DNA of 60,506 nt from an uncultured Gammaproteobacteria bacterium (GCA_964470645.1 CAYYDP010000002.1:1-60506), one strand, 5' to 3'; positions 7,507 to 57,440 are shown, counted from the stretch's first letter. Made by a program: numbers and translations. The notes: generated by a model not told the origin, from the letters alone.

Positions 7507-8400
7507 CTATTTTGATTTTATGGCATCAGCCAATTTCACCCACTCTTCAAATTTCAAATTCTCCGAACGCAGATCGGGATCGATTCCTGACTGTTTTAAT
7601 AATGCTTCTGCCTGGCTTGGTTCGCTTCGCAAAAACGCAGCCAAGGTGTTGCGAAGTTTTTTGCGTCTGTTCGCGAAACACGCCTTTACAATTCTGATAA
7701 AATCTTCTTCTTGAATACCACGCTCCCGAAGCAACTTTGCTTTTGAATACATTTCACCCAGCGTAATCTTCACCAACGCGCTGTCAACTTTTGGCTGCGG
7801 TCTAAACGCGGTTTTTGGAACATACGCGAGCAACTCAACGCGAGCGCGCAACTGAGCAATGATCGTAAGAATTCCCTCACTCCCGTCTTTCCCAATCAAA
7901 CGTTCGGCAACTTCTTTTTGAATCATGAGAATTGCTTCCGTTGGTTGGGTTTCAATCGGTGAAAACAGGATATCTTGAACAATGGGCTTGGTAATGTAAT
8001 ACGGAATATTACCAAAAATCTTATAGGGTTTTGAAATATGTTTTTTGAGTTCCGTGGACTCCCGCAAATAATCCCCTTGGATAATCTTCAGACGCGCTTC
8101 TCCCCTACTCTGTCTCCCCCTTGGCAAGGGGGAGATGAAAGAGGGGGTCTTGACTTGATTCAAGAATTTGACCATTCTCTGGTCCTTTTCAACACTCCAC
8201 ACTTCTCTCACCTTCTCCACCAACGGCAGTGTAATCACCCCAAGTCCAGGACCAATTTCCAGTACAACGTCATCTTTTGAGAACTGGTCGAGAATAAAAT
8301 CAACCGTCAAATCATCAATCAAAAAATTCTGCCCCAGAGATTTCGTGGCAATGATTCCTTCTCGCGTCGCGAGTTTCAAAAGTTCAAGTGGATGGATCAT
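7507..8400 (-). CDS. rsmA: 16S rRNA (adenine1518/1519-N6)-dimethyltransferase
   Basis: Motifs GQNFLIDD and VLEIGPGLGVITLPL are present. It contains an in-frame insertion (TPSFISPLPRGRQSRGE) encoded by the hairpin element at 8101-8148. Confidence 0.9.
   Translation of the reverse strand: MIHPLELLKLATREGIIATKSLGQNFLIDDLTVDFILDQFSKDDVVLEIGPGLGVITLPLVEKVREVWSVEKDQRMVKFLNQVKTPSFISPLPRGRQSRGEARLKIIQGDYLRESTELKKHISKPYKIFGNIPYYITKPIVQDILFSPIETQPTEAILMIQKEVAERLIGKDGSEGILTIIAQLRARVELLAYVPKTAFRPQPKVDSALVKITLGEMYSKAKLLRERGIQEEDFIRIVKACFANRRKKLRNTLAAFLRSEPSQAEALLKQSGIDPDLRSENLKFEEWVKLADAIKSK
8101..8148 (-). repeat. GC-rich hairpin element inserted in frame in ksgA
   Basis: Sequence is tcccctactctg + tctccccctt ggc aagggggaga (10-bp stem) + tgaaagagggggt. 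Confidence 0.8.
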
Positions 8401-8403
8401 ACG

Positions 8404-9159
8404 TCACTTGTATTGCTTACTAATACTCCACAACGTGTCAAAAAAAGACTTTTGCGTTTCGAAAAAATCTCTGCTCTCAATAATCAACGCGTAACCTTCG
8501 CCTTTTGTGGAAATCACCCCCACTTTGTAATCATACAACTGCATGAAAATTTTGAGTACTGTTGTTCTCGGGGCTATCCGAACTTCTCTAAGTTCAGAAT
8601 TATTTTTCGAAGGATGCAGAAATTCAAGCACATCATTATCGTCTTTCACAATTCCATAAGCAAAGATACCCCGTTTCACGCGCTCCTCAACAAATGTTTT
8701 GTTGAAATCGTTCACTCTCAAAATTGTATAATATTCCTTCATATCTCCCACGTAATATACTTCTTTTGAGGTACAGGAAACAGGGTCCCAAGCCGCTTCT
8801 TGAATCCCCTTCGTCCCGTGAAAATATTGAATCTTGGGTTTCGCGGGGAAAGCTGAGAACAGTGAGTTGAGTTGAGGCAAAATTTCCTTTGCCAATTCTT
8901 CCTTTTCTTTTACCAGATCACGAATTCGTTTTGGTGGATTGGCAACAAAGTAATGATGGTTGCTTTCATAAATTTCTGTAATCAACGATTTGCGCAATAA
9001 AAAACTTAGGTTGTCATAAACAGTCGTCCGCTTTACTCCAGCCTTTTTTGCAATTTCAATCACCGTTCCCTTTCCAAGCTCCAAACAGGCAAGATAAATT
9101 CTTGCTCGGTTTTCTTCAATTCCCAATTCTTGCAGCTGCTGTTCTAATAATTGATGCAT
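8404..9159 (-). CDS. TrmB-like regulator, paralog T2
   Basis: The wHTH is IEENRARIYLACLELGKGTVIEIAKKAGVKRTTVYDNLSFL. Its stop lies 3 nt from the ksgA ATG. Confidence 0.8.
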   Translation of the reverse strand: MHQLLEQQLQELGIEENRARIYLACLELGKGTVIEIAKKAGVKRTTVYDNLSFLLRKSLITEIYESNHHYFVANPPKRIRDLVKEKEELAKEILPQLNSLFSAFPAKPKIQYFHGTKGIQEAAWDPVSCTSKEVYYVGDMKEYYTILRVNDFNKTFVEERVKRGIFAYGIVKDDNDVLEFLHPSKNNSELREVRIAPRTTVLKIFMQLYDYKVGVISTKGEGYALIIESRDFFETQKSFFDTLWSISKQYK

Positions 9160-9267
9160 ACTGTTTAATGTCGTTGTCAGATGACATCATCAATAGCATA
9201 AAAGTACCATAAATAAACTATAAAATCAATTCTCTTTATGAAGGGGCTAAAATCGAGTCGAATACAG

Positions 9268-9296
9268 TTGACCTACATTTTAATAATAATTATTGT
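9268..9296 (+). promoter_or_regulatory. Sigma70-like promoter for P1
   Basis: TTGACC (9268-9273), a 17-nt spacer, then TATTGT (9291-9296). The TTG start of the track ORF at 9293 sits inside this -10 box. Confidence 0.5.
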
Positions 9297-9325
9297 GTTC
9301 AAAACAAGTAACTACCGCTGCCCCT

Positions 9326-10486
9326 ATGGTGCCAATATCTAAAACAAAGCTTTTCATCGCTGGATGTATCATTCTAGTTGGTTTAGCGTGGTTGACTCTC
9401 ATGATCCCATTTGAACATGGAGGCAAACCAAAACAACCCGACATCATTAAGGTGGGTGTCATTTTGCCTCTGACAGGAAATCTTGCGTCAATTGGCGTCC
9501 CAGGTAAGAACGCACTTGAACTCGCGTTTAACAGGATTAACCAACAGCAAACAGACTTTCGCTACGAAGTGATATATGAAGACTCAAAAGGGAGCCCGAA
9601 AGACGGCGTCACCGCTGCTCAAAAATTGCTTTCAGTTGACAAGGCACAAGTGGTCTTTGCAACGCTCTCCAGTGTGAGCCTTGCGATCGCACCGATCATC
9701 CAAGAGCGCAATGCACTATTATTTGCATCAGCAATCTCCACCGATCTGCTCAAGGAAGGAGACGGGATTTTTCGGTTTTTCCCGTCCACCCAAAATGAAG
9801 TTGCGGTATGGCTCGACAGGATCAAAAGTAAAAACTACAAACGAGTAGCTATGCTCTACATGAATGCCGAATTTTCTCTTGAGGAAAAGAAACAGCTTGA
9901 GGCGAGTTTACCAAATGACGTAATGTTTATTGCCGAATCATTCGAGGCGAATAGTCAGGATTTACGGACGCAGCTTACAAAGTTAAAACAATCGGATCCA
10001 GATGTGATTGTTATCTCAGGAATAGGTTCAAATTACGTCTCTTTAATGAATCAACTCAACGATCTTAACATCTCGCCCGCGGTTATTGGCGATTTCGATT
10101 TCGCCCTTTCAATAGCACGAAATGCTGCAAGAAAATCCGATCAAGGTCTCTCTCTGTTTGACGGTGTAGAGTTCGCTATGATTAACATTGATTCCACTTC
10201 ATCAGTAACGCAAGATCTCATAAAACGTTACCGTGAACGATATCGCGATCCAGAGTACGACATCTTAAACGAGTCAGAGGCGCTCTTTGCATATGACGCC
10301 GCGAATCTTCTCAATGAACGGGCGCAAAAGATTGGCGTGTTCGACATTAGCAAACTCAAGGACCAGTTACAAAACATAACACAATATTCCGGGGTGAGCG
10401 GCAACATCAAAATAACGAATCGTTCAGCCGATATTCCTTTAGTTCTCGCAAGATATCGAAACGGAGAAATTGAAATTGTTAAATAA
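9326..10486 (+). CDS. Membrane-anchored periplasmic-binding-protein type 1 (LivK/branched-chain amino acid SBP-like), P1
   Basis: An N-terminal TM segment is followed by IKVGVILPLTGNLASIGVPGKNALELAF and VIYEDSKGSPKDGV, typical of the Leu/Ile/Val-binding family. No lipobox cysteine is present. Confidence 0.8.
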   Translation: MVPISKTKLFIAGCIILVGLAWLTLMIPFEHGGKPKQPDIIKVGVILPLTGNLASIGVPGKNALELAFNRINQQQTDFRYEVIYEDSKGSPKDGVTAAQKLLSVDKAQVVFATLSSVSLAIAPIIQERNALLFASAISTDLLKEGDGIFRFFPSTQNEVAVWLDRIKSKNYKRVAMLYMNAEFSLEEKKQLEASLPNDVMFIAESFEANSQDLRTQLTKLKQSDPDVIVISGIGSNYVSLMNQLNDLNISPAVIGDFDFALSIARNAARKSDQGLSLFDGVEFAMINIDSTSSVTQDLIKRYRERYRDPEYDILNESEALFAYDAANLLNERAQKIGVFDISKLKDQLQNITQYSGVSGNIKITNRSADIPLVLARYRNGEIEIVK

Positions 10487-10487: not shown

Positions 10488-10567
10488 AAAAAATTCTGCC
10501 CCAGAGCCTTCTTGGTAATAATCCCTTCGTGAGTTGCACGTTTCAATAATTCAATTGGATGGATCAT
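10488..10567 (-). repeat. Duplicated ksgA 5' terminus (gene fragment)
   Basis: These 80 nt align with 8321-8400 (the intact ksgA start) at roughly 80 percent identity by eye, including the ATG (10565-10567). The fragment begins right after the P1 stop and ends 1 nt before the T3 stop. Confidence 0.85.
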
Positions 10568-10568
10568 A

Positions 10569-11315
10569 CTATTTCCCAACTGCCTCCCACATGATATGAA
10601 ACATTGTGCGGAATAAATTCGCGATTGTGTGACTTTTGATTCTCATTACCACTTTTTCTTTTGGATTTGAATATACGATCACGGTATCATCATATGTTTT
10701 CCAGTACGACTCGACGGTATGTTGTTTGGGATAAAAACGCATTTCACGTAAATACTTTGTATCGCTATTTTTATGAAGACGAGTAAAGTCAGACTCATTG
10801 GCGAGCATATACAAAAATATTTTGTTTCTCACGCGTTCCTTCATATACACATCCAAATCATATTCCCTCCCAATAATTTCCTGGAGTACATCAATATTCC
10901 CAAAATCAAACATGGTCTTGTTTTTTGCAAATAAACTTTGCTCCGTCAACTCACGAAATTGCTCAAGTGTATAATGCACCTCCACTTGAGCATTGTTTTT
11001 TTTCGTTCCATATTTCAAATCATCAAGAAGATCTTGAAGACTTAATTCCATGTGGCGATACTGACGGCGTTTTTTCGCGACAATATTCATGAGGGCTTCA
11101 GGCGCTGACAAGCGATACTTGTTAGCTCTACTTTTCAAGTCGTCTACAATAACTCCCTTGGCTTTCAATTCAGTTAAAAAACGAAACAAGGTGCTTTTTG
11201 GCAACCCGGTTTCTCGCATGAGCTCCATTGAGTTCGCTGATTGTCGTTGAATGAGTATCTCAATGATACGCTCCTCCTCTGATCGCAATCCAATGTCTTG
11301 AAGGGATAGTTTCAT
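10569..11315 (-). CDS. TrmB-like regulator, paralog T3
   Basis: The wHTH is ANSMELMRETGLPKSTLFRFLTELKAKGVIV. Length and C-terminal domain match the other paralogs. Confidence 0.7.
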   Translation of the reverse strand: MKLSLQDIGLRSEEERIIEILIQRQSANSMELMRETGLPKSTLFRFLTELKAKGVIVDDLKSRANKYRLSAPEALMNIVAKKRRQYRHMELSLQDLLDDLKYGTKKNNAQVEVHYTLEQFRELTEQSLFAKNKTMFDFGNIDVLQEIIGREYDLDVYMKERVRNKIFLYMLANESDFTRLHKNSDTKYLREMRFYPKQHTVESYWKTYDDTVIVYSNPKEKVVMRIKSHTIANLFRTMFHIMWEAVGK

Positions 11316-11435
11316 AGTCTCATGTTTAAGACTACTAAAGCGTAGCTTTTTTCCTTCATTTTAGCAAGACATGAAGATGGACATTCCCTTTTAGGACTAA
11401 TGAGCTAAAGTAACAATCGTATTATTCAACATCAT

Positions 11436-12329
11436 ATGGTTAATCCAAAAAACATCCGCGTTATTGTTACTGGCTGTGGGTATAAACCACTACAGCGAGA
11501 ATTTTGTGACCATCTTTCCGGACTGCCAACCCATTCAGAAATCATTTTAAATGGAATTCGGTGTAAATTAAATATCGGAGCGGCAATTGCGTGCACACTA
11601 TCCCAAAACGGATATATAGTTCACATGATATCAAAAACAGAAAAATCGCTCCTGAATCTCAAACAAGAATTTTGCAGTCGCTTTCACTGTTTACCAGACA
11701 CCATCGAGTACAGCGCATTCGATCTGCTGGATTCTGATCAAGTTAATAACTTCGTGGTTGATCTTCCAAAAGATAAACCAATCTATTGGGTGCAATCCAT
11801 TGGTTTGAGTGCGGGGAGTTATCAAGTGAAGGACGATAACCCATACCTCCCCATTGAGGACATTGATGCCGAGCTCATTGAGGCTGAATCTCGAACTCTG
11901 CTTCGAGGAACTCACCTTCTTGCGAAGAAGCTTGTTCCCTTATTTCGAAAACAAAAGGAGACGAGAGTTGTTATCATCACATCTCTTAGCGCAATACGCA
12001 GTTACGATATTGGTGCGACCCACTGTGCGTCAAAAGCGGCTTTGGATACGTATACTGAAGTTCTCCGTCTTGCGTTAAGTAAGGAGCATATCTTTGTCAC
12101 AACAATCCGACCTGGTATTGTAGATACTGGCATGTATGACCACCCAGCTGTGATCGCAGCGGTGAAACACGTTGGTGCAGAGTATGGCTGGAGCTATACA
12201 GATAACCAAATTCCACTTATCACTCCGCTTGCGATCGGAAAGCTTGTAAGAGAAGTTCTTTCATCAGAAGCCCACATCACCTCCATCAACCTGGTTGCCC
12301 GCGGCCAATGGCCGCACGAAGGGTCGTAG
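11436..12329 (+). CDS. Divergent short-chain dehydrogenase/reductase-like protein
   Basis: A Rossmann start VIVTGCGYKP and the segment SLSAIRSYDIGATHCASKAALDTY are present. The usual YxxxK tyrosine position reads H. Confidence 0.5.
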   Translation: MVNPKNIRVIVTGCGYKPLQREFCDHLSGLPTHSEIILNGIRCKLNIGAAIACTLSQNGYIVHMISKTEKSLLNLKQEFCSRFHCLPDTIEYSAFDLLDSDQVNNFVVDLPKDKPIYWVQSIGLSAGSYQVKDDNPYLPIEDIDAELIEAESRTLLRGTHLLAKKLVPLFRKQKETRVVIITSLSAIRSYDIGATHCASKAALDTYTEVLRLALSKEHIFVTTIRPGIVDTGMYDHPAVIAAVKHVGAEYGWSYTDNQIPLITPLAIGKLVREVLSSEAHITSINLVARGQWPHEGS

Positions 12330-12363
12330 CGACTATCTCATCGACCAGTTACGATTCAAAAAT

Positions 12364-13191
12364 CTAATCGCATTTACTTCGATATATCGTAATATCGAAG
12401 TATGCTAGCTCTATCTTCTTCAACCCAAGATACCACTTCCGTTTCTTTTCTGGAAATTTTTCGATTGCATATCGGAGCATGGTTCGGGGCATACGGTGGG
12501 CATGTTTATTTAGAAATGATTCTAGACTTCTCACATCCTTCTTCCCCACTTCCCGGAGCATCCACCCAACGGCTTTGTGAATGAGATCATGTTCGTCGTT
12601 CAATAATACATTCGCGATGTTGATCGTATCGTCAAATTGTCCTTTTTGGATTAACGCGTTAGTTGAAACCATAGCAATCCTTCGCTCCCACAGATTTTCC
12701 GATCTTGCAAGACGGAACAGAACTTTCCGATCTTTCTGTTTAAGTAAATAATCACCAAGAATACATGGCGCTGACGTATCCACCAAATCCCAATTATTAA
12801 CGTACTTTGTATGCTTCAAATAGAACGTTACTAGTTCCGCTCTCCCTCTGTCCTCCCCTTTCGAAGGGGAGGTGAAGGAGGGGTATCGAATGTTCGATTT
12901 TCCATTTTTCATTTTCCTTTTTCCATAATCCTCATATTTCATCGCCAACATTTCAAGCGCCACAAACCGTTCTTCGTGAATCTTGCTTTTGAGTAGCGTT
13001 TGAATCTCTTCAAGGGTTATTTCTTTGTAATATCTCTTCGCCACCTTCCGTTGTTCTGGTACCTTGATTCCCAAAAATCTATCCCCTTCTCCGTACTCCC
13101 CTTTTCCCGTCTTAAAAAACCACGCCGAAGCGTGAGCGCGTTTTGAATTAATAAGTTTCCGAAGTTCCCGTTTAAGCATCGCGAGGTACAT
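12364..13191 (-). CDS. DNA alkylation repair protein (AlkD-like HEAT-repeat family)
   Basis: The N-terminus KRAHASAWFFKTGKGEYGEGDRFLGIKVPEQRKVAKRY and NNWDLVDTSAP are typical of the DNA_alkylation family. It carries an in-frame hairpin element. Confidence 0.7.
   Translation of the reverse strand: MYLAMLKRELRKLINSKRAHASAWFFKTGKGEYGEGDRFLGIKVPEQRKVAKRYYKEITLEEIQTLLKSKIHEERFVALEMLAMKYEDYGKRKMKNGKSNIRYPSFTSPSKGEDRGRAELVTFYLKHTKYVNNWDLVDTSAPCILGDYLLKQKDRKVLFRLARSENLWERRIAMVSTNALIQKGQFDDTINIANVLLNDEHDLIHKAVGWMLREVGKKDVRSLESFLNKHAHRMPRTMLRYAIEKFPEKKRKWYLGLKKIELAYFDITIYRSKCD
12841..12884 (-). repeat. GC-rich hairpin element inserted in frame in the AlkD-like gene
   Basis: Sequence is tctccctctgt + cctcccctt tcg aaggggagg (9-bp stem) + tgaaggaggggt. 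It encodes YPSFTSPSKGEDRGRAE. Confidence 0.8.
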
Positions 13192-13210: not shown

Positions 13211-13942
13211 TTAAAATCGATCCCATGCGATCTGCAATAATGTTCTCATTGACTCCGCAATCTCTTTATCTTCAACGATGACGGCAATTTTATTACTAAA
13301 CGACATAAGGGCTACCTTGTTGGCGTATACGATGATTTCATTGGGGATCCGATACTTTTGATGCGGAAAAAATTTCATTTTCCGGGATGCCCGCTCGTCA
13401 AAGTTATGCTCCTCCACGCTCTCCGGGGTGTCGGGGCTTAATGATCTCACGGTAATATTATTTTTCTTTCGATTCCGATACGTTCGATGCAAAAAATCCC
13501 TTCCGGTTGCTTCATATAAATCCTTCACGGAAGAAACTGATACTACCTGACAATTTTTCGTTGATGTAAAATCTTCATACACATGCCGAAGTCCCGACAG
13601 CCCTTCGTAGAAGGAAACTTTGGGTTTAACGCCAGTATGTTTTCCGAGAAAAAGAAGATGTTTCAATTGTTTACGAAATTCTTCAACATTCATCACTACA
13701 TACTGAAATAAGCGGTCAGGGCTTAAGACCGAAAACGATTTTATTCCCTCTCTCTCTACGAACGAGCCGTATCCCTTTTTTACTAACCTTTTACACGTAT
13801 CGTATGTGGTAATCCGATTCAAACGGGCGGCGGTAGCGATTTCAGAAACCCTTGTCTCCCCAATGTGGAGCACAGCGAGGTATACCCTCGATTCCTTATC
13901 ACTAAAACCTAAACGGACGAAAATTTCTTCCAAATTGTTCAT
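13211..13942 (-). CDS. TrmB-like regulator, paralog T4
   Basis: The wHTH is FSDKESRVYLAVLHIGETRVSEIATAARLNRITTYDTCKRLVKKG. Confidence 0.8.
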   Translation of the reverse strand: MNNLEEIFVRLGFSDKESRVYLAVLHIGETRVSEIATAARLNRITTYDTCKRLVKKGYGSFVEREGIKSFSVLSPDRLFQYVVMNVEEFRKQLKHLLFLGKHTGVKPKVSFYEGLSGLRHVYEDFTSTKNCQVVSVSSVKDLYEATGRDFLHRTYRNRKKNNITVRSLSPDTPESVEEHNFDERASRKMKFFPHQKYRIPNEIIVYANKVALMSFSNKIAVIVEDKEIAESMRTLLQIAWDRF

Positions 13943-13952
13943 GATGTTTTGT

Positions 13953-14043
13953 TGTAATTATTTTCTACAATTATGATACAGAATGTCGTCTTTTATTTCA
14001 AATAAGAGATTAAATTTATATTAGTCTGTAATAATTTTCTACA
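13953..14043. promoter_or_regulatory. Divergent T4/methyltransferase control region with two 17-nt direct repeats
   Basis: Repeats are tgtaattattttctaca (13953-13969) and tgtaataattttctaca (14027-14043), with 16 of 17 identical. They are candidate operator sites. Confidence 0.4.
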
Positions 14044-14049
14044 GGATTT

Positions 14050-14805
14050 ATGATTTATCTGACGAATATGACAAAAGAACACTTCGTTCACAAAACGGTG
14101 TACCGACGGTACTCGATTGATACTTCGGCCCTGCGTCTGGAAATAACACCGGATATTTTCCCCCCTTCCACAAATGGACTATTTCTTGCAAAACAGTTCA
14201 GTGTTCGAAAGGGGGAAACAGTTATTGACATCGGCACTGGCTCCGGTATTCTCGCAATTACGGCCGCAAAACGAGGTGGCATTGTGTATGCAACCGACCA
14301 GGATCCTAAAGCAATCCGAGTTGCGCAAAGAAACGCTCATCAAAATAACGTACTGATAAAATTTAAGGTTGGGAAGTACTTCGCAAATTTTAGAAGAAAG
14401 TTTGATGTGATTATTGCTAACCTCCCCCAGGAGATCATTCCATACGAATACCGAATAAACCTCGGAGATACTCTCGCAAAGACTATCGATGGCGGCACGC
14501 GGGGGAACCGACAAATGGTACAATTACTCAAGGTAGCGAAACAATGGATGCGACGAAAATCACGAATGTACTTTCTGGTTAATTCATCAACCGACTATAT
14601 TTCCACACTGAGTATCATGGTGAAAAATTATGATGCGCGCCTTATTGCATTCAGCACACAGCCTATGAAGGGGTTCGTGGATGCTCACATACATAAATTC
14701 GAAAGGCTCCATAAACATGGACTCATTCATATACTTAAAAAGAGAAATAGATGGTACTGTTGTATGTATCTGTTCGAGCTCATGTTAAAAAAGTCTGATT
14801 TATAA
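14050..14805 (+). CDS. Class I SAM-dependent methyltransferase
   Basis: It has SAM motif [21 protein letters not shown], then [10 protein letters not shown] and DVIIANLPQ. Confidence 0.75.
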
Positions 14806-14821
14806 AATTAGAACCCCCCAA

Positions 14822-50299: not shown

Positions 50300-50319
50300 T
50301 TGTTAGTTTTTTAGAACGG

Positions 50320-50453
50320 AACATTTGTGAAGGTTTCGGAATAGACCTCACTCAACAACGCCCCGTTCTACGATTCGCGCGAATTGAAGAACGATTCTAT
50401 TAAAGGAGTGGGGCTTCAGCTTCTTTCATTTTCTTGAGATTCAAGATGAGCAT
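50320..50453 (-). repeat. Duplicated tsaC 5' terminus, copy r1 (decayed)
   Basis: The minus strand reads atgctcatcttgaatctcaagaaaatgaaagaa (MLILNLKKMKE), compared with the intact MLTLNLKKTKE. Weaker, frame-broken similarity extends to about 50320. Its ATG lies 1 nt from the T11 stop. Confidence 0.75.
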
Positions 50454-50454
50454 A

Positions 50455-51204
50455 TCAATCCTCGATTGAATTCCATATTAGTTGGAACAACTCTCGTCCC
50501 ATTTGTACGACACTGGGGTTTTCAATGGCAATGGCGGAGATTGGGTTAAATTGATGAATGACGAGTAGATTGGGCGTGACAATCAGGTTTGTGGCGAGCG
50601 ACGTGTTTGGCGGAAGAATTTTAATGTGTTCGTGATAATTTTTTTCAAAACCCTTCCGTCGTCGCGCTTCTTCAGTGTCTTGCAGAAGCAACCGAGTGTC
50701 AATATTGAGTTTAGAACGGCAATTAAGATACTGTTCAAAGTATTCCCGATCCTCTTTTCTCCACTCTTCCGTATCCGATATCGCCCAGTAGTACTCTTTT
50801 GGTTTCAATTCTTCTAAGATTCGGTCATAAACCGTTTTCACCAATTCCAAACCTTCGTAGTGTTTGATAGTGCTCGATTCTCCCTTGAGGTGGAAGAGCG
50901 CGGAAAACTCCGGCAGTATGTGCTGGAATTTTTGTTTGCGGATATCAAGGAGATTTCCGACGTGTTCCGGGTTTTCGGCTATGAATCTGCGCTTTACTCC
51001 TTTGATTTCAACTCGAATAAATCCTTGCCTCATCAAGGATTCAATGATTGAATACACTGTTGTTCGTTTGATCCCAGTTTCTTTTGAAAGCGAGAGAACC
51101 GATGAGGAACCGAGCGATAAACAAGCGACATACACTCGTGCCTCGTGGTCGCTCATCCCGATGTCAATAAGCGATGAAACAAGCTTTTCGTGATGATTGA
51201 TCAT
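50455..51204 (-). CDS. TrmB-like regulator, paralog T11
   Basis: The wHTH is MSDHEARVYVACLSLGSSSVLSLSKETGIKRTTVYSIIESLMRQGF. Confidence 0.8.
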   Translation of the reverse strand: MINHHEKLVSSLIDIGMSDHEARVYVACLSLGSSSVLSLSKETGIKRTTVYSIIESLMRQGFIRVEIKGVKRRFIAENPEHVGNLLDIRKQKFQHILPEFSALFHLKGESSTIKHYEGLELVKTVYDRILEELKPKEYYWAISDTEEWRKEDREYFEQYLNCRSKLNIDTRLLLQDTEEARRRKGFEKNYHEHIKILPPNTSLATNLIVTPNLLVIHQFNPISAIAIENPSVVQMGRELFQLIWNSIED

Positions 51205-51234
51205 AAAATGTCTGAAAAAGGTCCGACATTATCT

Positions 51235-51263
51235 ATACTAAAATAAGGTAAGAATATTGTCAA
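51235..51263 (-). promoter_or_regulatory. Sigma70-like promoter for T11
   Basis: On the minus strand: TTGACA (51258-51263), a 17-nt spacer, then TAGTAT (51235-51240). Confidence 0.5.
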
Positions 51264-51350
51264 ATTAAGTCGAATGTCGACAGATATGACAGATTTTCGT
51301 TTCTAAGGTACGTTTATTAGTCGAAAGGTAAATTCTGGAGACGAACTATT

Positions 51351-52475
51351 ATGAAAAAGTATATCATTCCATTTATCATATTGATCATGCTTGTGATCGG
51401 CGCTGCGTTAGCGGTATTTCCTGAAAAACAAAAGGGAGCAATCAAAATCGGGGTCGTCGCAACGCTCACGGGTGTTGGGGCGTACCAAGGACAACAAGAG
51501 CTCCGGGGACTTGAGTTGGCGCGAGATGAAATAAATTCGAAAGGAGGAATAAAAGGAAAGCAAGTCAAGCTTTTTGTTGAAGACAGCAAAGCGGATCCAA
51601 AAGAAGCTGTCAGGGTATTTCAAAAACTGATTTCAGTAGATGGAGTAAAGTTCGTTATTGGTGACTCGTGGTCTTCAACGACCGTTGCGCTTGTTCCGCT
51701 TGCAAATGAAAATAAAGTTCTACTGATTTCTCCATTGGCTCTCTTGAATGAGTTAAGCGCGGATGATTACTTTTTCAGAACCATCCCAGCAGTGCAGAAA
51801 ATGATGGAGACGCTAGCACAACACGCATACGGATCACTTGAGTCCAGGAGTGTTGGCATTTTGCGCCAGCAGACGCCATTTGGCGTCGAACACACGAAAT
51901 ATTTCAAAGAAGAATTCGAAAAACTTGGTGGAATTGTTGTTGGCGAGGAAAGCTTCCCGCTCTCGCAAACCGATGTTCGGGCTGAAATCACAAAATTGAA
52001 ATCCACAAACCCCGATACCGTTCTCAATCTTCATGGTACTGGTCCGATTTTGGGAAATCTCATGAAGCAGGCAAAAGAATTGGGGTTGGATGTGAATTGG
52101 ATTTCTTCGTTCGGGGCTCAAAATATCCCGCTTGTAAAAGAATTTGGAACGGTGGTGGAAGGGTTGATCTACCCATATCCGTTTGACAGTGATGCAAACA
52201 TTAAAAGCATACAGAATTTCAACAATCAGTATCAAGAGCGTTTTAATGAATTACCGGACATGGTCGCCGCGAACTCGTATGATGCTTTGATGGTATTGGC
52301 GCAAGCGATTAATAACGCTGGTGAAGATACGTTTAAAGTAAAACAGCGGCTACTGAAGACCAAAGATCACAACGGTGCAAGCGGAGAATTTTCGTTCGAT
52401 CAAAACGGTGACGTCGAAAAACCCATTATCATCAAACAAATCCATGATGGGAAGTTCGTGAAGGTTTCGGAGTAA
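51351..52475 (+). CDS. Membrane-anchored LivK-type solute-binding protein, P6
   Basis: A TM anchor is followed by IKIGVVATLTGVGAYQGQQELRGLELA and LFVEDSKADPKEAV. Confidence 0.85.
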   Translation: MKKYIIPFIILIMLVIGAALAVFPEKQKGAIKIGVVATLTGVGAYQGQQELRGLELARDEINSKGGIKGKQVKLFVEDSKADPKEAVRVFQKLISVDGVKFVIGDSWSSTTVALVPLANENKVLLISPLALLNELSADDYFFRTIPAVQKMMETLAQHAYGSLESRSVGILRQQTPFGVEHTKYFKEEFEKLGGIVVGEESFPLSQTDVRAEITKLKSTNPDTVLNLHGTGPILGNLMKQAKELGLDVNWISSFGAQNIPLVKEFGTVVEGLIYPYPFDSDANIKSIQNFNNQYQERFNELPDMVAANSYDALMVLAQAINNAGEDTFKVKQRLLKTKDHNGASGEFSFDQNGDVEKPIIIKQIHDGKFVKVSE

Positions 52476-52499
52476 GATTCAACGGAAGGAACAATGTGC

Positions 52500-53687
52500 C
52501 TAGATCATGCTCGCGGGTATAAAACCCAATTGTTTTGAAAACGACTTTGAGATAACGTAGGTATGTTTGAGTTTCAACGATTTTGCCACAGATTGAGCCT
52601 TCGCGTAATCTTGCGGGACCGCGGTCTGCTTCACCTCAAGAGCAACCGATTCTTTCGGAAGCACAAAATCAATTTCAATCCCAGTCCTCCGTTGATAATA
52701 ATGGATAGGCTCATAGGATGGTTTCAGGTTTTGAAAAACAGCATTTTCCAAAAGCTGGCCGTCTCCGACGTTTGCGAAATGATTCACGATCCCAACATCG
52801 CAGGCATACAGCTTCTTTGTCCCACTCACCTCTCGATCACGGTTCCGGCTAAAGGGAGTAATGAGATGGATAAAATACGTTCCTTCAAGAAACGACAGAT
52901 ACGAGTATACCGTTTCCCGGGAAACCCCTACTTCAACCGATAATTTGCTGATCTCTAGCTTTGAACCAACCCGCTGCAAAAGCAATAGCAACAAATCCCT
53001 CAGAGCGGTAAGATTTTTCACATCCGCCAACGTCTTCACGTCTTTTTCAAAATAGGATTTAAAAATATCGTTCAATCGGATCTTTTTTTGCTCCCAGGTT
53101 TTGGCAAGTACCACAGACGGAAACCCACCAAACTGGAGATACTCATCGTATAACTTTTTTGATCGCTCGAATTGGACTTCGGTTTTTTGTACGTGCTTTT
53201 CCGGGAACGAACCGCCCCACGGCATGGGAACGCGCTTAAACTCAAGAAACTCCTGAAACGTTAATGGATAGAGTTCAAAAACCGCTTTTCGTCCTGCGAG
53301 ACTCTCAGGAAATACATTCTTAAAATAATAACTGGACGAACCAGTAAGAAAAAACTTAACATCATGATGATCTTGCAAATACTTGATCGCCTTTACAATA
53401 TTTGGCATTGCCTGAATTTCATCAAGAAAAACATACGCCTTTTTCTTTGGGCTGATTCCGTACGACGCGAGGTTTGCCAAGATATTATTGTAATCGGTTT
53501 CCTCAAAAATCTTTTGCTCAACCGGGTTCTCAATGTCCAAAAATACTTTGTTATCACTCTTAATCTCGTCAAAGATTTGGCGATAGAGGGTTGTTTTCCC
53601 AACCTGTCGCATACCAGTGAGAACAATAATTTCTTTGGTCGATAACTGCTTTCTCAGCTTTGGTAATAATGATCGTTGAAATATCAT
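52500..53687 (-). CDS. AAA-family ATPase with DUF4143-like C-terminal domain
   Basis: It has the Walker A motif IIVLTGMRQVGKTTLY and is a paralog of 23264-24490. Confidence 0.7.
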   Translation of the reverse strand: MIFQRSLLPKLRKQLSTKEIIVLTGMRQVGKTTLYRQIFDEIKSDNKVFLDIENPVEQKIFEETDYNNILANLASYGISPKKKAYVFLDEIQAMPNIVKAIKYLQDHHDVKFFLTGSSSYYFKNVFPESLAGRKAVFELYPLTFQEFLEFKRVPMPWGGSFPEKHVQKTEVQFERSKKLYDEYLQFGGFPSVVLAKTWEQKKIRLNDIFKSYFEKDVKTLADVKNLTALRDLLLLLLQRVGSKLEISKLSVEVGVSRETVYSYLSFLEGTYFIHLITPFSRNRDREVSGTKKLYACDVGIVNHFANVGDGQLLENAVFQNLKPSYEPIHYYQRRTGIEIDFVLPKESVALEVKQTAVPQDYAKAQSVAKSLKLKHTYVISKSFSKQLGFIPASMI

Positions 53688-53695
53688 ATATCTTT

Positions 53696-53724
53696 ATCTT
53701 ACATTATGACATAAATATTGTCAA
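53696..53724 (-). promoter_or_regulatory. Sigma70-like promoter, near-leaderless AAA ATPase mRNA
   Basis: On the minus strand: TTGACA (53719-53724), a 17-nt spacer, then TAAGAT (53696-53701). The ATG at 53687 is 8 nt after the -10 box. The region also holds the inverted repeat atattgtc-N11-gacaatat (53715-53741). Confidence 0.5.
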
Positions 53725-53772
53725 CCATCAGTCGACAATATAGTCATTCTCAAATCAACAAATGAACAATAA

Positions 53773-53820
53773 TCCGATGGTTTTCTTAATCACCTCCGAT
53801 TCTTTCGTTTTTTGAGATTG
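53773..53820 (-). repeat. Duplicated tsaC 5' terminus, copy r2 (truncated before the ATG)
   Basis: gttttcttaatcacctccgattctttcgttttttgagatt is nearly identical to 57385-57427. Confidence 0.85.
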
Positions 53821-53833
53821 ATAGTCAATGGTC

Positions 53834-53861
53834 TTGACATAAACTATATATAGAGTATCAT
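53834..53861 (+). promoter_or_regulatory. Sigma70-like promoter with no downstream ORF
   Basis: TTGACA (53834-53839), a 16-nt spacer, then TATCAT (53856-53861). Confidence 0.5.
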
Positions 53862-53867
53862 GTTATT

Positions 53868-53958
53868 GAAAATTCACAGCCGAATACTTCCCTTATGGTA
53901 GGTGTCCCGACTTGTCGGGAATAGGCTGTTCCCCCTATCGACGGGGGTTTTTGTTTTT
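53868..53958 (+). ncRNA. Candidate small RNA (~90 nt)
   Basis: It runs from the predicted TSS to an intrinsic terminator, ccccctatcgacggggg + tttttgttttt (53931-53958). An internal hairpin is tcccgac ttg tcggga. The only ORF on this strand (53912-54136) starts inside the candidate RNA, has no recognisable motif and is antisense to the DUF3800 pseudogene. It is convergent with that pseudogene. Confidence 0.4.
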
Positions 53959-54519
53959 ACAAATGTTTAATTATACCTTTGCTTTCTGCCCGGCGATAAC
54001 AATCTGCTACTTTTTCATTTCCCTCAAGATAGTCGCGAACAAAGCCAGCTATTGCGTCAGCCAATCGAATGAAAGGGTCATTTTCATCTTTCCTAACACC
54101 ACGAACCTTTCTCACACGGACGTTAAGTCTTTTTAAACCCGCTGAAAAGCGATGTCGTTCCGATCGTTTGAGTCCATCAACAAACACAGTTGTTTCATAC
54201 AACCCTTGAGATTTACGCAAAATCGCTTTCGCGGTTGAAAATATCGTGAGATCAAAATACGCCTTACTCTCGGAATAATACGAATAAAAAATTGTTTCAC
54301 GAAGATGCTTATTTTCCAGTACTGCCCGATGTATGCCAACCTCCGTTTTTCATTCGTATGAAACCACTTCCGATTCCCTTTGCAACTTCGCCTCTCAACA
54401 CCCCCAAGATGTTGTTGAATCAACTCGCGGTCGCGATCCAACACCACCACTGATACGAGAAACAGTTTTCCCTCGGTATCTTGTCCAGATTCATCAACAT
54501 AGCAGTATAGTTTTTGCAT
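53957..54519 (-). pseudogene. DUF3800-family gene split by a frameshift
   Basis: The N-terminal ORF (54133-54519) starts MQKLYCYVDESGQD. The C-terminal ORF (53957-54220) contains PFIRLADAIAGFV. The second frame is open back to a homopolymer, T5 on the plus strand at 54346-54350. One extra base there would fuse the two into one protein of about 187 aa. Confidence 0.65.
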
Positions 54520-54550
54520 ACGATCAGTGTATCAAACTCAATGTGAGTAA

Positions 54551-54618
54551 TTCAATGCTTCCACGGTCTTCTTGATGACTTCCCCTTCTTTCGTTTTTCT
54601 GAGATTCAGGATGAGCAT
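54551..54618 (-). repeat. Duplicated tsaC 5' terminus, copy r3
   Basis: ttcaatgcttccacggtcttcttgatgacttccccttctttcgtttttctgagattcaggatgagcat includes the ATG (54616-54618). It lies 4 nt from the T12 stop. Confidence 0.8.
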
Positions 54619-54622
54619 AGTT

Positions 54623-55369
54623 TTATGTTAACGGGTCACTCTGATCCCATAAAAACTGCCAAAGTTGTTTTTGCAGTTTCACAATCTTCAAATCTTCAAT
54701 GGCTGTACTTGCGAGCGGTTCAAACGAATCAAAGACAGCCATCCGATCATTCAACAGGAATCCGACTTTATTCGAGATATCAAATCCCGATGGAAGAAAC
54801 CGAATTTCCTGCATCCCCGCGCGGTATTTTTTCTTAACATATTCGAGTGTTTTCTCGGTTCGTGGCATTAGATTGCGAACACACCCGCCGTGACGCTTAA
54901 GAATCTCAAACATATGCTTATTGTGTGCTTCACCAAATATTTTCCAATACTCCTCAATAAACACGAGTCCAGAAACCTCTTTTGATCTCATCATGACATC
55001 ATGAATGTATTCAAACTGCTTTCGACCCTCATACAGGGTTGTCCTGCTTTTGGGCTCATGAATCCGTTTTTGGTTCACCTCGAGTGCAATCTGCTTTGCA
55101 AGTTCCGTCTTCTCAAGATACCCATAAAGCACAGCTTCAAAACCAAGAGGAATATAAAAATCGATCTTACCCTTCTGAATTTGAGAGACAAGACTTTTTT
55201 GCTTCAACGACTCAACGATGACATACACCGTTGGTCGTTTCAGGCCAGTGCGCTGCGCGAGTTCGGTCATGCGAGCTTCTCCAAGTACAACAAGAGCATT
55301 GTATACCTCAGCCTCTTTTCCGGTAAACCCAAGTTCAGTCAAGCGAAATACGATGTTGGTATTATCCAT
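54623..55369 (-). CDS. TrmB-like regulator, paralog T12
   Basis: The wHTH is FTGKEAEVYNALVVLGEARMTELAQRTGLKRPTVYVIVESLKQKSLV. ATG at 55369. Confidence 0.8.
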   Translation of the reverse strand: MDNTNIVFRLTELGFTGKEAEVYNALVVLGEARMTELAQRTGLKRPTVYVIVESLKQKSLVSQIQKGKIDFYIPLGFEAVLYGYLEKTELAKQIALEVNQKRIHEPKSRTTLYEGRKQFEYIHDVMMRSKEVSGLVFIEEYWKIFGEAHNKHMFEILKRHGGCVRNLMPRTEKTLEYVKKKYRAGMQEIRFLPSGFDISNKVGFLLNDRMAVFDSFEPLASTAIEDLKIVKLQKQLWQFLWDQSDPLT

Positions 55370-55467
55370 AACGACAGTATTAACATAACACAGACAATAC
55401 AAACGTCAATAGATATTGACGTTTATTTACGGCAATTCTTTCCAGAATCCACTCTCTCGCTTATGAT

Positions 55468-56313
55468 ATGACGATTGCACTGAATCTATCTATGGAACCA
55501 TATCTCCCTCCAATCAATAATCAAGAATCAGAATTTGACTTCGAAACTCGTGGAACTCACTATTCTGACGCACACGAACAAATGCCATGGGTACGTGGGG
55601 AAGAAATCAACCAAATCCTTGTGTCTGTTGGTTGTACCGGACCATTGGTTGGGAAAACAATACTCGATTTTGCATGCGGTTCTGGAACCGTTACTATCCC
55701 ATTATCTATCGCAGTTGGGTCGGGGGGTGTCGTATATGCCGCCGATGACTCTGAAACGAATTTTCAAAGACTCAAGAAAAAAGCAGGATCCGAACTCCCG
55801 ATCACTATTCTCCTTTTGAAACCAAATGAAAGGCTCAACGTACAATCGTCTTGCGTTGATGTGGTTGTCTCGCTTGCGGGGATGCATCATGTCCCAAATG
55901 ATGCGCGCCAAGGCATCTTCGTAGAATTTTATCGAGTATTGAAACCAGGCGGCTATGTAGTGATTGGCGATGTGTTGGATCAACGACCAGTACAATCTTA
56001 CTTTGACAACGTGGTTGATAAAGTTTGTTCGACGGGACATCTTCACCGTTTTTTTGATAAAACCCAAATCCAGGAATTATGCGGACAAAGTGGTCTACTT
56101 CTGGAACGGTTCAATGAGGTGTCCACACCTTGGATATTCAATAACGAGAAAGAGGCGGGTGCCTTTCTCCGGACAATTCACGATGCAAAAAAACATTTCA
56201 CACCAGAGTACTGTCTGGCGGAAGCAAAAAAATACCTCGGATGTTCAAATGACGGCGGAATATTCAAACTGAATTGGTCACTCTTTTTCATGACAGCGAA
56301 AAAACAACAATGA
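55468..56313 (+). CDS. Class I SAM-dependent methyltransferase
   Basis: It carries motif I ILDFACGSGTVTIPLSIAVGSGGVVYAADDSE. Confidence 0.75.
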   Translation: MTIALNLSMEPYLPPINNQESEFDFETRGTHYSDAHEQMPWVRGEEINQILVSVGCTGPLVGKTILDFACGSGTVTIPLSIAVGSGGVVYAADDSETNFQRLKKKAGSELPITILLLKPNERLNVQSSCVDVVVSLAGMHHVPNDARQGIFVEFYRVLKPGGYVVIGDVLDQRPVQSYFDNVVDKVCSTGHLHRFFDKTQIQELCGQSGLLLERFNEVSTPWIFNNEKEAGAFLRTIHDAKKHFTPEYCLAEAKKYLGCSNDGGIFKLNWSLFFMTAKKQQ

Positions 56314-57338
56314 TATCATCGAATCTTGATCAGCACGAAAAAATAATTCGCCTTTCAGACCCAAAATCGGGATTACGAGGGTTCATCGCTATTCACAACA
56401 CATCCCACGGACCCGCAACAGGGGGTACGCGCATGATGCCCTATACATCCGAACAAGACGCACTCAATGACGCACTCAAGCTCGCTCGAGCGATGACCTA
56501 CAAATGTGCGCTCGCCGGAGTTCCCTACGGTGGCGGGAAAGGGGTGATCATTGGCGATCCAAAAAAAGATAAGACACAGAAATTGCTACAATCCTACGCT
56601 CAAATCGTAAATTCCCTCAATGGTATATTCACCACCGGCGAAGATGTGGGGATTACACGTGAAGATGCGGAGATCATGACAAAAACATCTCCGTACATTA
56701 ACGGCTTCAGCAAATCAACTGATCCGTCACCTTTTGCCGCCCTGAGTGTGTTTTCTTCAATAAAGAGCGCGGTCAAAATAACCAATAATGAATCGCTTCG
56801 ATATAAAAAAATCGCCGTCAAAGGAATTGGAAAGGTTGGATCTGAACTTATTCGGTTACTCATAAAAACTGGAGCTAAACTCTATGCGGCAGACATTGAT
56901 TCAAAAATAATTACAAAGATACGTCGAGAATTCCCTACAGTAGGGATCGTAGAGACTTCTTCCATTCATCAATTGCCCGTTGACGTCTTTGCTCCCTGTG
57001 CACTGGGAAATGAAATTGCCAAAGAAAACATCTCTGAGATTAAGGCGAAAATAATCTGCGGTAGCGCAAACAACCAACTCTCATCAGAAGCCATCGGAGA
57101 CCAGTTATTTCATCGCGGGATATTGTATATTCCTGACTATCTCGCAAACGCAGGAGGATTGATCAATGCGATCGACACGCGCGAACCGGGTGGGTATCAA
57201 AAAAAACGAGTAATGAGGCGAATAAATTTCCTTCAAAACACATTGCGTACCATTCTTAAGGCGTCGAATATATCCAATATTCCTCCTTATAGAATCGCAG
57301 ATCGTATTGCTGAAGAGAAGATTTCGGAATCAAAATAA
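56310..57338 (+). CDS. Glu/Leu/Phe/Val dehydrogenase family (leucine/valine dehydrogenase-like)
   Basis: GPATGGTRMMPY, AGVPYGGGKGVIIGDP and VKGIGKVGSELIRLL (a Rossmann motif) are present. Its start overlaps the upstream stop as ATGA. Confidence 0.85.
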   Translation: MISSNLDQHEKIIRLSDPKSGLRGFIAIHNTSHGPATGGTRMMPYTSEQDALNDALKLARAMTYKCALAGVPYGGGKGVIIGDPKKDKTQKLLQSYAQIVNSLNGIFTTGEDVGITREDAEIMTKTSPYINGFSKSTDPSPFAALSVFSSIKSAVKITNNESLRYKKIAVKGIGKVGSELIRLLIKTGAKLYAADIDSKIITKIRREFPTVGIVETSSIHQLPVDVFAPCALGNEIAKENISEIKAKIICGSANNQLSSEAIGDQLFHRGILYIPDYLANAGGLINAIDTREPGGYQKKRVMRRINFLQNTLRTILKASNISNIPPYRIADRIAEEKISESK

Positions 57339-57440
57339 CTCTATCGTTGGATACACAACAAGTCCTCCCTTTTTCAAGACTTCAATCGTTTTCTTAATCA
57401 CCTCCGATTCTTTCGTTTTTTTGAGATTCAGGATGAGCAT
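57339..57440 (-). repeat. Duplicated tsaC 5' terminus, copy r4 (longest)
   Basis: About 100 nt align with 48143-48242 at close to nine tenths identity by eye. It translates as MLILNLKKTKESEVIKKTIEVLKKGGLVVYPT. It begins right after the dehydrogenase stop. Confidence 0.9.

Follow-up and report, generated by a model that had tools for sequence, protein, structure and literature searches.

Gene content of the locus

The window examined here, meaning the whole stretch of DNA analysed, is 60,506 nucleotides (nt) long and comes from an assembly labelled as an uncultured Gammaproteobacteria bacterium (GCA_964470645.1, CAYYDP010000002.1:1-60506). Its G+C content is 43%, and the nearest relatives of its housekeeping genes are metagenome-assembled genomes (MAGs) of Patescibacteria, the candidate phyla radiation (CPR). 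Set among these genes are about 13 cassettes, 11 of which contain a gene for a TrmB-like protein, and the cassettes are typically bracketed by two copies of the same end of an adjacent conserved gene, the host gene. The inserts measure 1.6-3.9 kb each, so that regulator-cargo modules account for about 27 kb in total. The twelve TrmB-like genes (T1-T12) encode proteins of about 250 amino acids (aa) that share 18-30% identity with one another in an all-against-all comparison; every one of them scores above the gathering threshold of the TrmB winged-helix family PF01978. T1 (6607-7350, plus strand) is a conserved paralog without flanking repeats.

The most frequent cargo genes, P1-P6, encode proteins of about 400 aa (23-34% mutual identity), all of which are Peripla_BP_6 solute-binding proteins of the LivJ-like type. 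No partner permease or ATPase genes of an ATP-binding cassette transporter were found for them in the 60 kb, and they may be surface receptors rather than transporter subunits. Other cargo comprises class I S-adenosylmethionine (SAM) methyltransferases, which are generic enzymes (Methyltransf_25/11, PrmA-like), a queuosine-salvage protein, a short-chain dehydrogenase (SDR), a Glu/Leu-dehydrogenase-like protein, AbiE and YafQ toxin modules, two AAA_14/DUF4143 ATPases and a DUF3800 fragment. Pfam analysis identified the host genes as KsgA, AlkD-like (DNA_alkylation), MsrA, DinB and a TsaC-TsaE fusion (TsaCE), while two further host genes, of 168 and 204 aa, have no family assignment. A gene of about 216 aa beside the 204-aa gene is here called U.

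Searches with TsaCE, KsgA and gene U provided the Patescibacteria contigs used for comparison: L055/L056, L057 (an NCBI MAG), L058, L059 (a Logan assembly) and L060, from the same sample as L059. Exact-protein look-ups with the TsaCE and KsgA of the window gave no match. A scan of species-representative genomes found relatives with at most 59% aa identity, in which tsaCE adjoins tsaD without T or P genes; these served to establish ancestral gene order and are too distant for the analysis of junctions. A metagenome scan returned mainly short contigs, of which L043 was the sole close one.

Direct repeats of host-gene ends

Self-comparison of the window with blastn detected direct repeats at seven of the eight host loci listed in the original prediction, with scores of 52-133 bits against a best score of 41 bits in 20 Markov-2 shuffles. 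The strongest pair (133 bits, 91% identity) duplicates the 5' end of tsaC at 48148-48243 and 57346-57441, and additional copies of this end lie at 50414-50454, 53767-53819 and 54524-54619. The others are repeats of the 204-aa gene (40294-40363 and 42259-42328; 118 bits, 97%), tsaE (43738-43864 and 47159-47285; 104 bits, 78%), msrA (25000-25052 and 28986-29038; 88 bits, 96%, the last 13 nt of the live copy being different), ksgA (8321-8402 and 10488-10569; 82 bits, 82%), the AlkD-like gene (13113-13167 and 14824-14878; 64 bits, 85%) and the DinB-family gene (35190-35231 and 36824-36862; 53 bits, 88%). The pair at the 168-aa gene (16525-16546 and 18583-18604) spans only 22 nt and, at 32 bits (E = 0.89), is at chance level by itself; this locus is considered real because L060 has a single copy exactly at the point where T5 and P2 are inserted. 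The predicted repeat pairs are therefore borne out at all eight loci.

Repeat lengths are 39-137 nt at seven loci and 22-26 nt at the eighth, with sharp edges and no core sequence common to the repeats of different loci. When T is placed on the minus strand, the layout is repeat, leftward T, rightward cargo, repeat; T always points the same way as the host gene and has a repeat copy after it. The gap between the T stop codon and the repeat is 0-19 nt (31 nt for T8 by the strict boundary), the stop lies 1-4 nt from the host ATG at five junctions, and the last cargo stop is mostly 1-11 nt from the other repeat. The earlier count, by which 10 of 12 T stops are no more than 20 nt from a repeat boundary, was reproduced, with T1 and T6 as exceptions and with T8 included only if its repeat is extended to the ATG at 40384. 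Inner repeat boundaries fall in or beside sequence coding for LGQNF of KsgA, VVYPT of TsaC, IEWAEK of TsaE and KRAHASAWFF of AlkD, which we take to be strongly conserved motifs of these families. The tsaC 5' copies end at varying points (about nt 41, 66, 70 and 96), and no conserved sequence was seen at the 3' ends of the T and cargo genes.

Cassette 1 (8404-10486) lies between ksgA (7507-8400, minus strand; PF00398, 1.9e-50), whose first 80 nt (8321-8400) are the live repeat copy, and a ksgA 5' remnant (10488-10569, minus strand) that consists of an ATG and 26 codons in an open frame ending at the LGQNF motif. It carries the divergent genes T2 (8404-9159, minus strand; PF01978) and P1 (9293-10486, plus strand; PF13458), the T2 stop being 3 nt from the ksgA ATG and the P1 stop 1 nt from the remnant. 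The original list of cassettes stands for the eight repeat loci and missed a thirteenth cassette at the AlkD/ksgA junction, cassette 1b (10569-12410), with T3 (10569-11315, minus strand), the SDR gene (11436-12329, plus strand) and a hairpin (12375-12402). This unit is inserted exactly at the ancestral AlkD/ksgA overlap without a long repeat, at most 2-3 nt being duplicated. Because of this insertion, the AlkD-like gene (12364-13191, minus strand; PF08713) has lost its stop codon and runs 17 codons into the end of the cassette across the hairpin (12364-12412). Its live 5' repeat copy (13106-13191) is followed by cassette 2 (13211-14805), comprising T4 (13211-13942, minus strand) and a SAM methyltransferase gene (14050-14805, plus strand), and by a 5' remnant (14817-14902, minus strand) that is the native allele and is contiguous with AbiEii, as in L060. 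Cassette 3 (16563-18574), with T5 (16563-17387, minus strand) and P2 (17444-18574, plus strand), separates the 168-aa gene (18581-19087, minus strand; 92% aa identity to the first gene of L060), whose live 3' copy is at 18581-18606, from a native 3' remnant (16523-16548, minus strand) that matches L060 including the downstream flank.

At msrA (24484-25065, plus strand; PF01625), the live 3' copy (25000-25065) precedes cassette 4 (25180-28957), which encodes a methyltransferase (25180-25899) and P3 (25901-27112) on the minus strand and T6 (27098-27907) and a DUF6922 plus AbiEii pair (28083-28957) on the plus strand. The msrA 3' remnant (28986-29047, plus strand) is on the response-regulator/major facilitator superfamily (MFS) side, which is the ancestral context; L055 retains an msrA fragment beside the MFS gene. 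The DinB-family gene (36828-37334, minus strand; PF05163; 91% aa identity to L059) has its live 3' copy at 36824-36862, and its 3' remnant (35190-35232, minus strand) is followed by its own diverged terminator hairpin. Between the two is cassette 5 (35236-36776), with T7 (35236-36009, minus strand) and a methyltransferase gene (36084-36776, plus strand). The repeat pair here agrees with the original prediction and the boundary does not, as 47 nt of native terminator separate repeat and cassette on the cargo side.

The 204-aa gene (39770-40384, minus strand; 87% aa identity to the L059 gene at 5469-6077) starts at the ATG at 40384, not at 40453 as first supposed. Its live 5' copy (40294-40384), of which the first 24 nt are foreign, is followed by cassette 6 (40395-42257), with T8 (40395-41159, minus strand) and the queuosine-salvage gene (41271-42257, plus strand), and by a 5' remnant (42259-42352, minus strand), a native allele that keeps its ATG and matches L059 in its first 24 nt. 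A 281-aa open reading frame (ORF) at 42227-43072 is the separate gene U, which has lost its stop codon and now reads through the remnant to give a chimeric C-terminus. The idea that this ORF and a 227-aa ORF form one split gene was ruled out, since homologs of the 281-aa product have about 216 aa and L059 has two separate neighbours. A 32-nt sequence, AATGTCATTGCGAG(T)GCATCCGAAGCAATCTT, was noted at 7353-7384, just past the T1 stop, and inverted at 42370-42400, past gene U, where it belongs to an insertion, some 45 nt long and not present in L059, that removed the stop codon of U. No more copies of it were found in the window or in loci L001-L060.

The TsaC-TsaE fusion gene (47154-48242, minus strand; PF01300 and PF02367) hosts both a 3' repeat (47154-47290) and a 5' array (live copy 48148-48243). 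On its 3' side is cassette 7 (43871-47150), with T9 (43871-44641, minus strand), two hypothetical genes (44691-44981 and 44987-45997, plus strand) and P4 (45927-47150, plus strand), and beyond it a tsaE 3' remnant (43733-43870, minus strand) of 45 codons plus a stop in an open frame. The 5' array (48246-57441) begins with T10 (48246-49004, minus strand), P5 (49100-50299, plus strand) and remnant B (50414-50454). Next are T11 (50455-51204, minus strand), P6 (51351-52475, plus strand), an AAA_14/DUF4143 gene (52500-53687, minus strand) and remnant C (53767-53819), followed by a unit without T, in which a DUF3800 fragment (54133-54519, minus strand) precedes remnant D (54524-54619). The last unit has T12 (54623-55402, minus strand), a methyltransferase gene (55468-56313, plus strand), the Glu/Leu-dehydrogenase-like gene (56274-57338, plus strand) and remnant E (57346-57441), which adjoins PfkB, as in L055.

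Two other duplications of gene ends or flanks were observed. The last 19 nt of a long-arm tRNA gene (59190-59273) are repeated perfectly (59256-59274 and 59362-59380), the copies being 88 nt apart and enclosing an 87-nt segment, and the window is about 200 nt longer than L055 at this position. In L061, an unrelated contig of Moranbacteria type, a 74-nt sequence is present at 1363-1436 and 2434-2507 with 95% identity; the copies follow the stop codons of RbfA and of a DHH-phosphoesterase and enclose the DHH gene, which may reflect the same type of event in another CPR lineage.

Empty sites in related contigs

In L055/L056, whose TsaCE is 85% identical at the aa level to that of the window, the order tRNAs, L19, PfkB, tsaCE, tsaD, MFS, msrA fragment, ksgA and ValRS occupies about 10 kb, and no T or P genes are present in this backbone; in the window the same gene set is spread over 894-58560, about 57 kb. 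Gene U of L058 lies 3 nt past tsaCE, which is an empty site for the cassette from T9 to P4. L059 (aa identities of 89% for TsaCE, 91% for DinB and 89% for U) has U and a 202-aa homolog of the 204-aa gene 2 nt apart, with no T8 cassette, and its DinB gene has a single 3' end and no cassette. In L060, the 168-aa gene, AbiEi, AbiEii, AlkD and ksgA are contiguous, and the overlap between AlkD and ksgA is ATGA.

Relatives therefore provide empty sites for T2+P1, T3+SDR, T4 plus methyltransferase, T5+P2, T7 plus methyltransferase, T8 plus queuosine salvage, and T9 to P4. The sequence that is repeated in the window is single-copy at the empty sites of L060 (ksgA, AlkD and the 168-aa gene), L059 (the 204-aa gene and DinB), L058 (tsaE) and L055 (tsaC and ksgA). 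Since intact host genes without cassettes occur in all of these relatives, we regard the cassettes as insertions.

Native and foreign gene ends

Three-way alignments at the AlkD, 204-aa and 168-aa genes showed that the remnant and the DNA beyond it match the relative. Window positions 14824-16546, from the AlkD remnant to AbiEii and beyond, align to L060 as one 90% block, and the N-terminus encoded by the AlkD remnant, MMLNVLKKELRHLADP, matches MMLNDLKTELRCLADP of L060. At its terminus, the live copy carries a different allele, over about 54 nt in AlkD, 24 nt in the 204-aa gene and the last 15 nt or so in the 168-aa gene. Further in, the two window copies of the repeat are identical (32 nt in AlkD, 70 nt in the 204-aa gene and about 22 nt in the 168-aa gene), and both share differences from the outgroup. 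A near-identical inner part and a diverged terminal part were likewise found in the msrA and DinB pairs, so that inner segments of 22-70 nt are identical or 96-97% identical at five loci. Comparison with an outgroup, where there is one, thus usually identifies the remnant as the native gene end, which agrees with the proposal that incoming DNA carried a replacement gene end.

The ksgA, tsaE and tsaC pairs are instead diverged from end to end (78-91% identity), and their divergence is of the coding type. The ksgA remnant matches the live copy at 20 of 26 aa, and the tsaE remnant at 33 of 45 aa (78% nt identity). Summed over the ksgA, AlkD, msrA, tsaE and tsaC-E pairs, differences at codon positions 1, 2 and 3 number 32, 16 and 45, and the remnants keep open frames with conservative substitutions. 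Neutral decay was simulated by placing the observed number of random substitutions on the live sequence and scoring aa identity without new stops in 20000 trials; the observed result was reached in none of 20000 trials for tsaE (P<5e-5), and P was 0.014 each for ksgA and tsaC-E. The differences look like purifying selection, both copies having evolved as coding sequence.

Phylogenetic comparison pointed in the same direction. Over 126 nt, the two tsaE copies of the window are 77.8% identical to each other, while identity reaches 84.9% between the live copy and L043 and 81.0% between the remnant and L058. In a neighbour-joining tree of tsaE, the window remnant groups with the L059 remnant and L058, and the live copies with L043 and L055. 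Copy C of tsaC and its upstream flank are of the L057 allele type, with a different N-terminus. Coding-type divergence and outgroup clustering together imply that one copy of each such pair came from another lineage. Long target duplication in place followed by neutral decay is excluded by the simulation for tsaE, ksgA and tsaC-E, and by the outgroup for AlkD and the 204-aa gene.

Cassette exchange and cassettes without T

At the tsaE 3' end of L059, tsaCE is followed by a convergent P gene, a T gene and a tsaE remnant whose first residue (about 318) is that of the window remnant. The junction string TTGAATCTTG is common to both remnants and absent from the live genes. P4 and T9 share only 33% and 26% identity with the P and T proteins of L059, which lacks the two hypothetical genes. 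With different T and P genes between one and the same pair of tsaE repeats, this pair predates the present cassette and the site has been reused.

Not all such inserts contain T. In L057, inserts with DUF3800 and an SDR fragment are flanked by duplicates, one of tsaE (118 nt) and one of tsaC (51 nt), and in the window the DUF3800 insert between tsaC copies D and C is flanked as the T cassettes are; the whole segment, including remnants D and C, is collinear with L057 6845-7891. In L043, a methyltransferase gene is convergent on tsaE.

Toxin-antitoxin genes were observed at cassette borders in the window (14909-16397, 28083-28957 and 43297-43731), in L059 (3317-4812) and in L060 (328-1816), and are of the AbiEi/AbiEii, DUF6922+AbiEii and YafQ types; downstream of the tsaE remnant, AbiE is found in L059 versus YafQ in the window and L057. 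The two AAA_14/DUF4143 paralogs, 26% identical, are likewise at borders of inserted material, one (23264-24490) directly upstream of msrA and the other (52500-53687) within the tsaC array.

Fold and conservation of the TrmB-like proteins

A profile of 62 family members matches TrmBL2 (PDB 5bpd/5box) over residues 10-245 with E ~1e-10. The AlphaFold model of T has a mean predicted local distance difference test (pLDDT) score of 93.6, and its best Foldseek matches are TrmBL2 (5bpd, 1e-13) and TrmB (3qph, 6e-11). The C-terminal domain resembles the phospholipase D (PLD)-family nucleases NucT (E=1e-6) and Zucchini in fold, with 11-12% identity, so the statement in the original prediction that the TrmB family carries a PLD-like domain was correct. 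The catalytic motif HxK(x)4D is absent from T, however, and no His or Lys is conserved among the 62 members, whose sole invariant residue is the C-terminal Trp244. The PLD-like domain of T is therefore catalytically inactive. The same domain is also inactive in TrmB and TrmBL2.

Palindromes of the form GTCA-N(0-14)-TGAC are concentrated between T and cargo genes, these intergenic regions holding 5 of the window's 16 in 1.8% of its length. Examples at divergent T promoters are GTCAGATGAC at 9176 and GTCAATAGATATTGAC at 55405, and another T/cargo intergenic region has a direct repeat of TGTAAT(T/A)ATTTTCTACA. Judged from sequence and predicted structure, T behaves as a local transcription regulator of each module, probably by binding operators of this kind, and not as an integration enzyme. 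This flags the TrmBL2-like family as a typical local regulator of accessory genes in CPR bacteria.

The T paralogs are not each other's nearest relatives, and their best matches outside the window are equally distant, except for T1 (78%) and T11 (36%). Orthologs of T1 with 60-78% identity occur in other CPR contigs (L052-L054) in differing genomic contexts, which made them unusable as empty sites. At the T loci of three unrelated CPR genomes (L052, L061 and L063), no gene-end repeats were found.

Two further features of the window were recorded. A 7-nt unit, CTTGTAG or CTTGTAA, forms short runs at 1375-1415, 30916-30956 and 31604-31634, inside the ValRS and TsaD coding regions, and the match of TsaD to its Pfam model is broken into three stretches, suggestive of inserted segments.

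Origin of the cassettes

We favour, at a probability of roughly 0.6, the explanation that the modules were inserted by homology-anchored ordinary recombination with DNA of diverged relatives and later exchanged at the sites so fixed, with no dedicated TrmB-driven system. The window would represent a genome-growth hot spot in a Patescibacteria chromosome, and each module a TrmBL2-like repressor with one to three divergently transcribed cargo genes that, in other lineages, already stood beside the same conserved gene. DNA from such a relative would enter the cell, most plausibly by natural transformation, and would be integrated by the host's own recombination machinery, presumably of RecA type. 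One end would recombine homologously within the conserved gene, in its best-conserved stretch near the start or stop, and the other would be joined a few dozen nt deeper in the resident gene. The gene would thereby remain intact with a foreign terminus, the resident terminus would become a dead fragment beyond the cassette, and 22-70 nt of resident sequence would be left in two copies. Repeated events at one gene could build arrays such as the five tsaC 5' copies, and paired repeats could then act as homology arms for cassette swaps between lineages, as suggested by the comparison of the window with L059.

Several published observations are relevant to these steps. Conservation of the com system for DNA uptake extends throughout CPR, and Saccharibacteria have been shown to undergo transformation by homologous recombination (PMC10633639). 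Gene transfer into Patescibacteria is mostly from other Patescibacteria (PMC12455944), and integration with homology at one end and an illegitimate joint at the other is well established (PMC3240628). The varied repeat lengths (22-137 nt) and the breakpoints that track conserved motifs fit a homology-dependent process better than a site-specific one. Gene termini, originally proposed as the targets of a dedicated system, would only appear to be targeted, because the insertions that survive are those that restore gene ends and because breakpoints fall in the most conserved stretches near those ends.

Some results do not sit easily with this explanation. The non-homologous joints lie 0-14 nt from terminal cassette stop codons in 7 of 11 cases, a pattern that random illegitimate joining does not predict and that would need later trimming or a more precise process. 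The identical inner segment is on the gene-body side of the foreign terminus, and the exact strand mechanics would therefore have to include a sister chromatid or replication fork, a circular intermediate or later gene conversion, and not a simple replacement by one molecule. The DinB locus looks reversed in polarity, its live copy and terminator being those that match L059. No donor genome was found, the closest relatives having empty sites or different cassettes, so the homologous crossover and any microhomology at the joint are not directly visible. Natural transformation has been shown in Saccharibacteria only and not in the lineage of the window, the search for recombinases covered only the window and related loci, and presence or absence alone does not tell a gain in the window from a clean repeat-to-repeat loss in the relatives.

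The tight cassette ends would also suit discrete mobile cassettes moved by a recombinase encoded elsewhere and acting in trans, in the manner of an integron integrase, with insertion at gene boundaries and exchange at fixed junctions. The T and last-cargo stops lie 0-14 nt from repeat boundaries at most loci, the same tsaE junction was reused by unrelated T/P pairs in the window and L059, and T3+SDR sits exactly at the AlkD/ksgA boundary with no more than 2-3 nt duplicated. The hexamer TTGAAT occurs within 12 nt of 4 of 11 novel junctions, a count that none of 2000 stop-codon control sets reached; this motif was chosen post hoc, though, and is not significant family-wise as a shared junction motif, the maximal hexamer count being 4 or more in 8-11% of control sets. 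Pfam and NCBIfam scans of window ORFs of at least 70 aa and of the related loci found no recombinase, transposase or integrase, as the original prediction had reported for the window, and the hypothetical cassette proteins showed no recombinase-like domains in NCBIfam and PDB sequence searches. With no core common to the repeats of different loci, and with repeat lengths and breakpoints that favour homology, we consider a trans-acting recombinase unlikely, if the strongest of the alternatives. Slightly less probable again is a true cassette system without a conventional recombinase, in which units ending at two stop codons are inserted and exchanged at the termini of conserved genes by an unrecognised activity; this might involve a TrmBL2-like DNA-bridging factor or a junction signal such as TTGAAT. 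If it existed, such a system would be an integron-like platform for gene capture that uses host-gene ends as attachment sites.

The original prediction went further and made the TrmB-like gene the constant, working part of an acquisition system. Were T itself to bind cassette ends or gene termini and cut or join DNA with its PLD-like domain, its presence in most cassettes, the abutment of its stop on a repeat copy and the NucT-like fold would be accounted for. We hold this to be very improbable, as the HxK...D residues are absent, the best structure and sequence matches are regulators with the same inactive domain, and T1 orthologs are conserved in ordinary genomic contexts; moreover, the DUF3800 and SDR-fragment inserts have the same duplications without T, T3+SDR has T without a long repeat, and the T loci of L052, L061 and L063 have T without gene-end repeats. 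It is doubtful, though less so, that the island is ancestral and that the window shows retention while relatives lost cassettes cleanly by recombination between repeats. Direct repeats of 40-137 nt are indeed substrates for deletions that would yield the single-copy state of the relatives, and the tsaE repeat pair predates the split between the window and L059. Many independent clean losses in at least four relatives would be required, however, each repeat pair would still need an insertion mechanism that brings a foreign gene end, and cassettes at the same site differ between lineages. Lastly, arrays of similar units in one orientation superficially resemble the products of local tandem duplication of gene end, T and cargo, or of a chimeric assembly of coexisting strains. 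Both are refuted, the former in agreement with the original prediction: neighbouring T proteins are no closer to each other than to those of other genomes whereas the non-coding remnants are 78-97% identical, the cargo genes are mutually non-homologous, tsaC copy C is a different allele type, the joints between cargo stops and gene interiors share no k-mers that could mislead an assembler, and the independent assemblies L057 and L059 have the same architecture.

CPR genomes are tiny and streamlined and their mode of gene gain is poorly understood; this locus shows one concrete route, in which modules are added successively beside essential genes without breaking them and leave footprints in which resident and incoming sequence can be told apart. 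The composite repeats constrain the mechanism to a homologous anchor with a second joint nearby. As Saccharibacteria can be transformed in the laboratory, this mechanism is directly testable.

Comparison with known systems

In Escherichia coli, the prophage e14 and phage 21 integrate in icd, and other islands target tRNA genes; their attachment sites overlap the gene end and restore it. The cassettes of the window resemble such elements in that incoming DNA supplies a slightly different replacement terminus while the original one persists as a pseudo-fragment, at AlkD, the 204-aa and 168-aa genes and, by phylogeny, tsaE. They differ in having no tyrosine or serine recombinase in any cassette or elsewhere in the window, a different gene and sequence at each locus, and lengths and breakpoints that vary even at tsaC. 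Nor is the locus an integron, as there is no IntI integrase and the sequences between cassettes, in place of attC sites of conserved structure, are fragments of adjacent host genes that differ by locus. Homology-facilitated illegitimate recombination (PMC3240628) shares the combination of one homologous end, one end without homology and no enzyme of the element, but a duplication of resident sequence at the illegitimate join is not reported for that process, and here the join lies inside the homologous gene and 22-137 nt are duplicated.

The T proteins are comparable to TrmBL2 and TrmB of Thermococcales (PDB 5bpd, 5box and 3qph) in having a winged helix, a long coiled-coil helix and a PLD-like C-terminal domain without catalytic residues; at about 250 aa, they are of the size of TrmBL2 and lack the sugar-binding domain of TrmB proper. 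In contrast to Thermococcales TrmBL2, they are bacterial (CPR) and occur as many divergent paralogs per genome, each paired with a divergent cargo gene. With PLD/HKD nucleases such as NucT and Zucchini they share the fold only and not the HxK(x)4D motif.

Insertion with long target duplication (Nobusato et al. 2000; Furuta et al. 2010, PMC2853133) is known from restriction-modification genes, and chiefly from naturally transformable species; its repeats often run across start or stop codons, and its mechanism is unknown (PMC2853133). The likeness is extensive: inserts of a few kb (below 20 kb) with no transposase, integrase or other mobility gene in or beside them, direct repeats of tens to hundreds of bp (above 30 bp at seven loci), a repeat that is single-copy at the empty site of relatives, and survival of the target gene. 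The window departs from it in that the cargo consists of regulator-plus-cargo modules, no restriction enzymes having been found among it, in the density of at least 12 events in 50 kb with a five-copy array, in the exchange of cassettes at fixed repeat pairs and in the CPR host. Whereas published cases have two near-identical target copies, the repeats here are either composites that join a foreign terminal part to an inner native part present twice, or uniformly diverged alleles. The best reading of the locus is therefore as a dense CPR variant of insertion with long target duplication, which is the closest phenomenon described.

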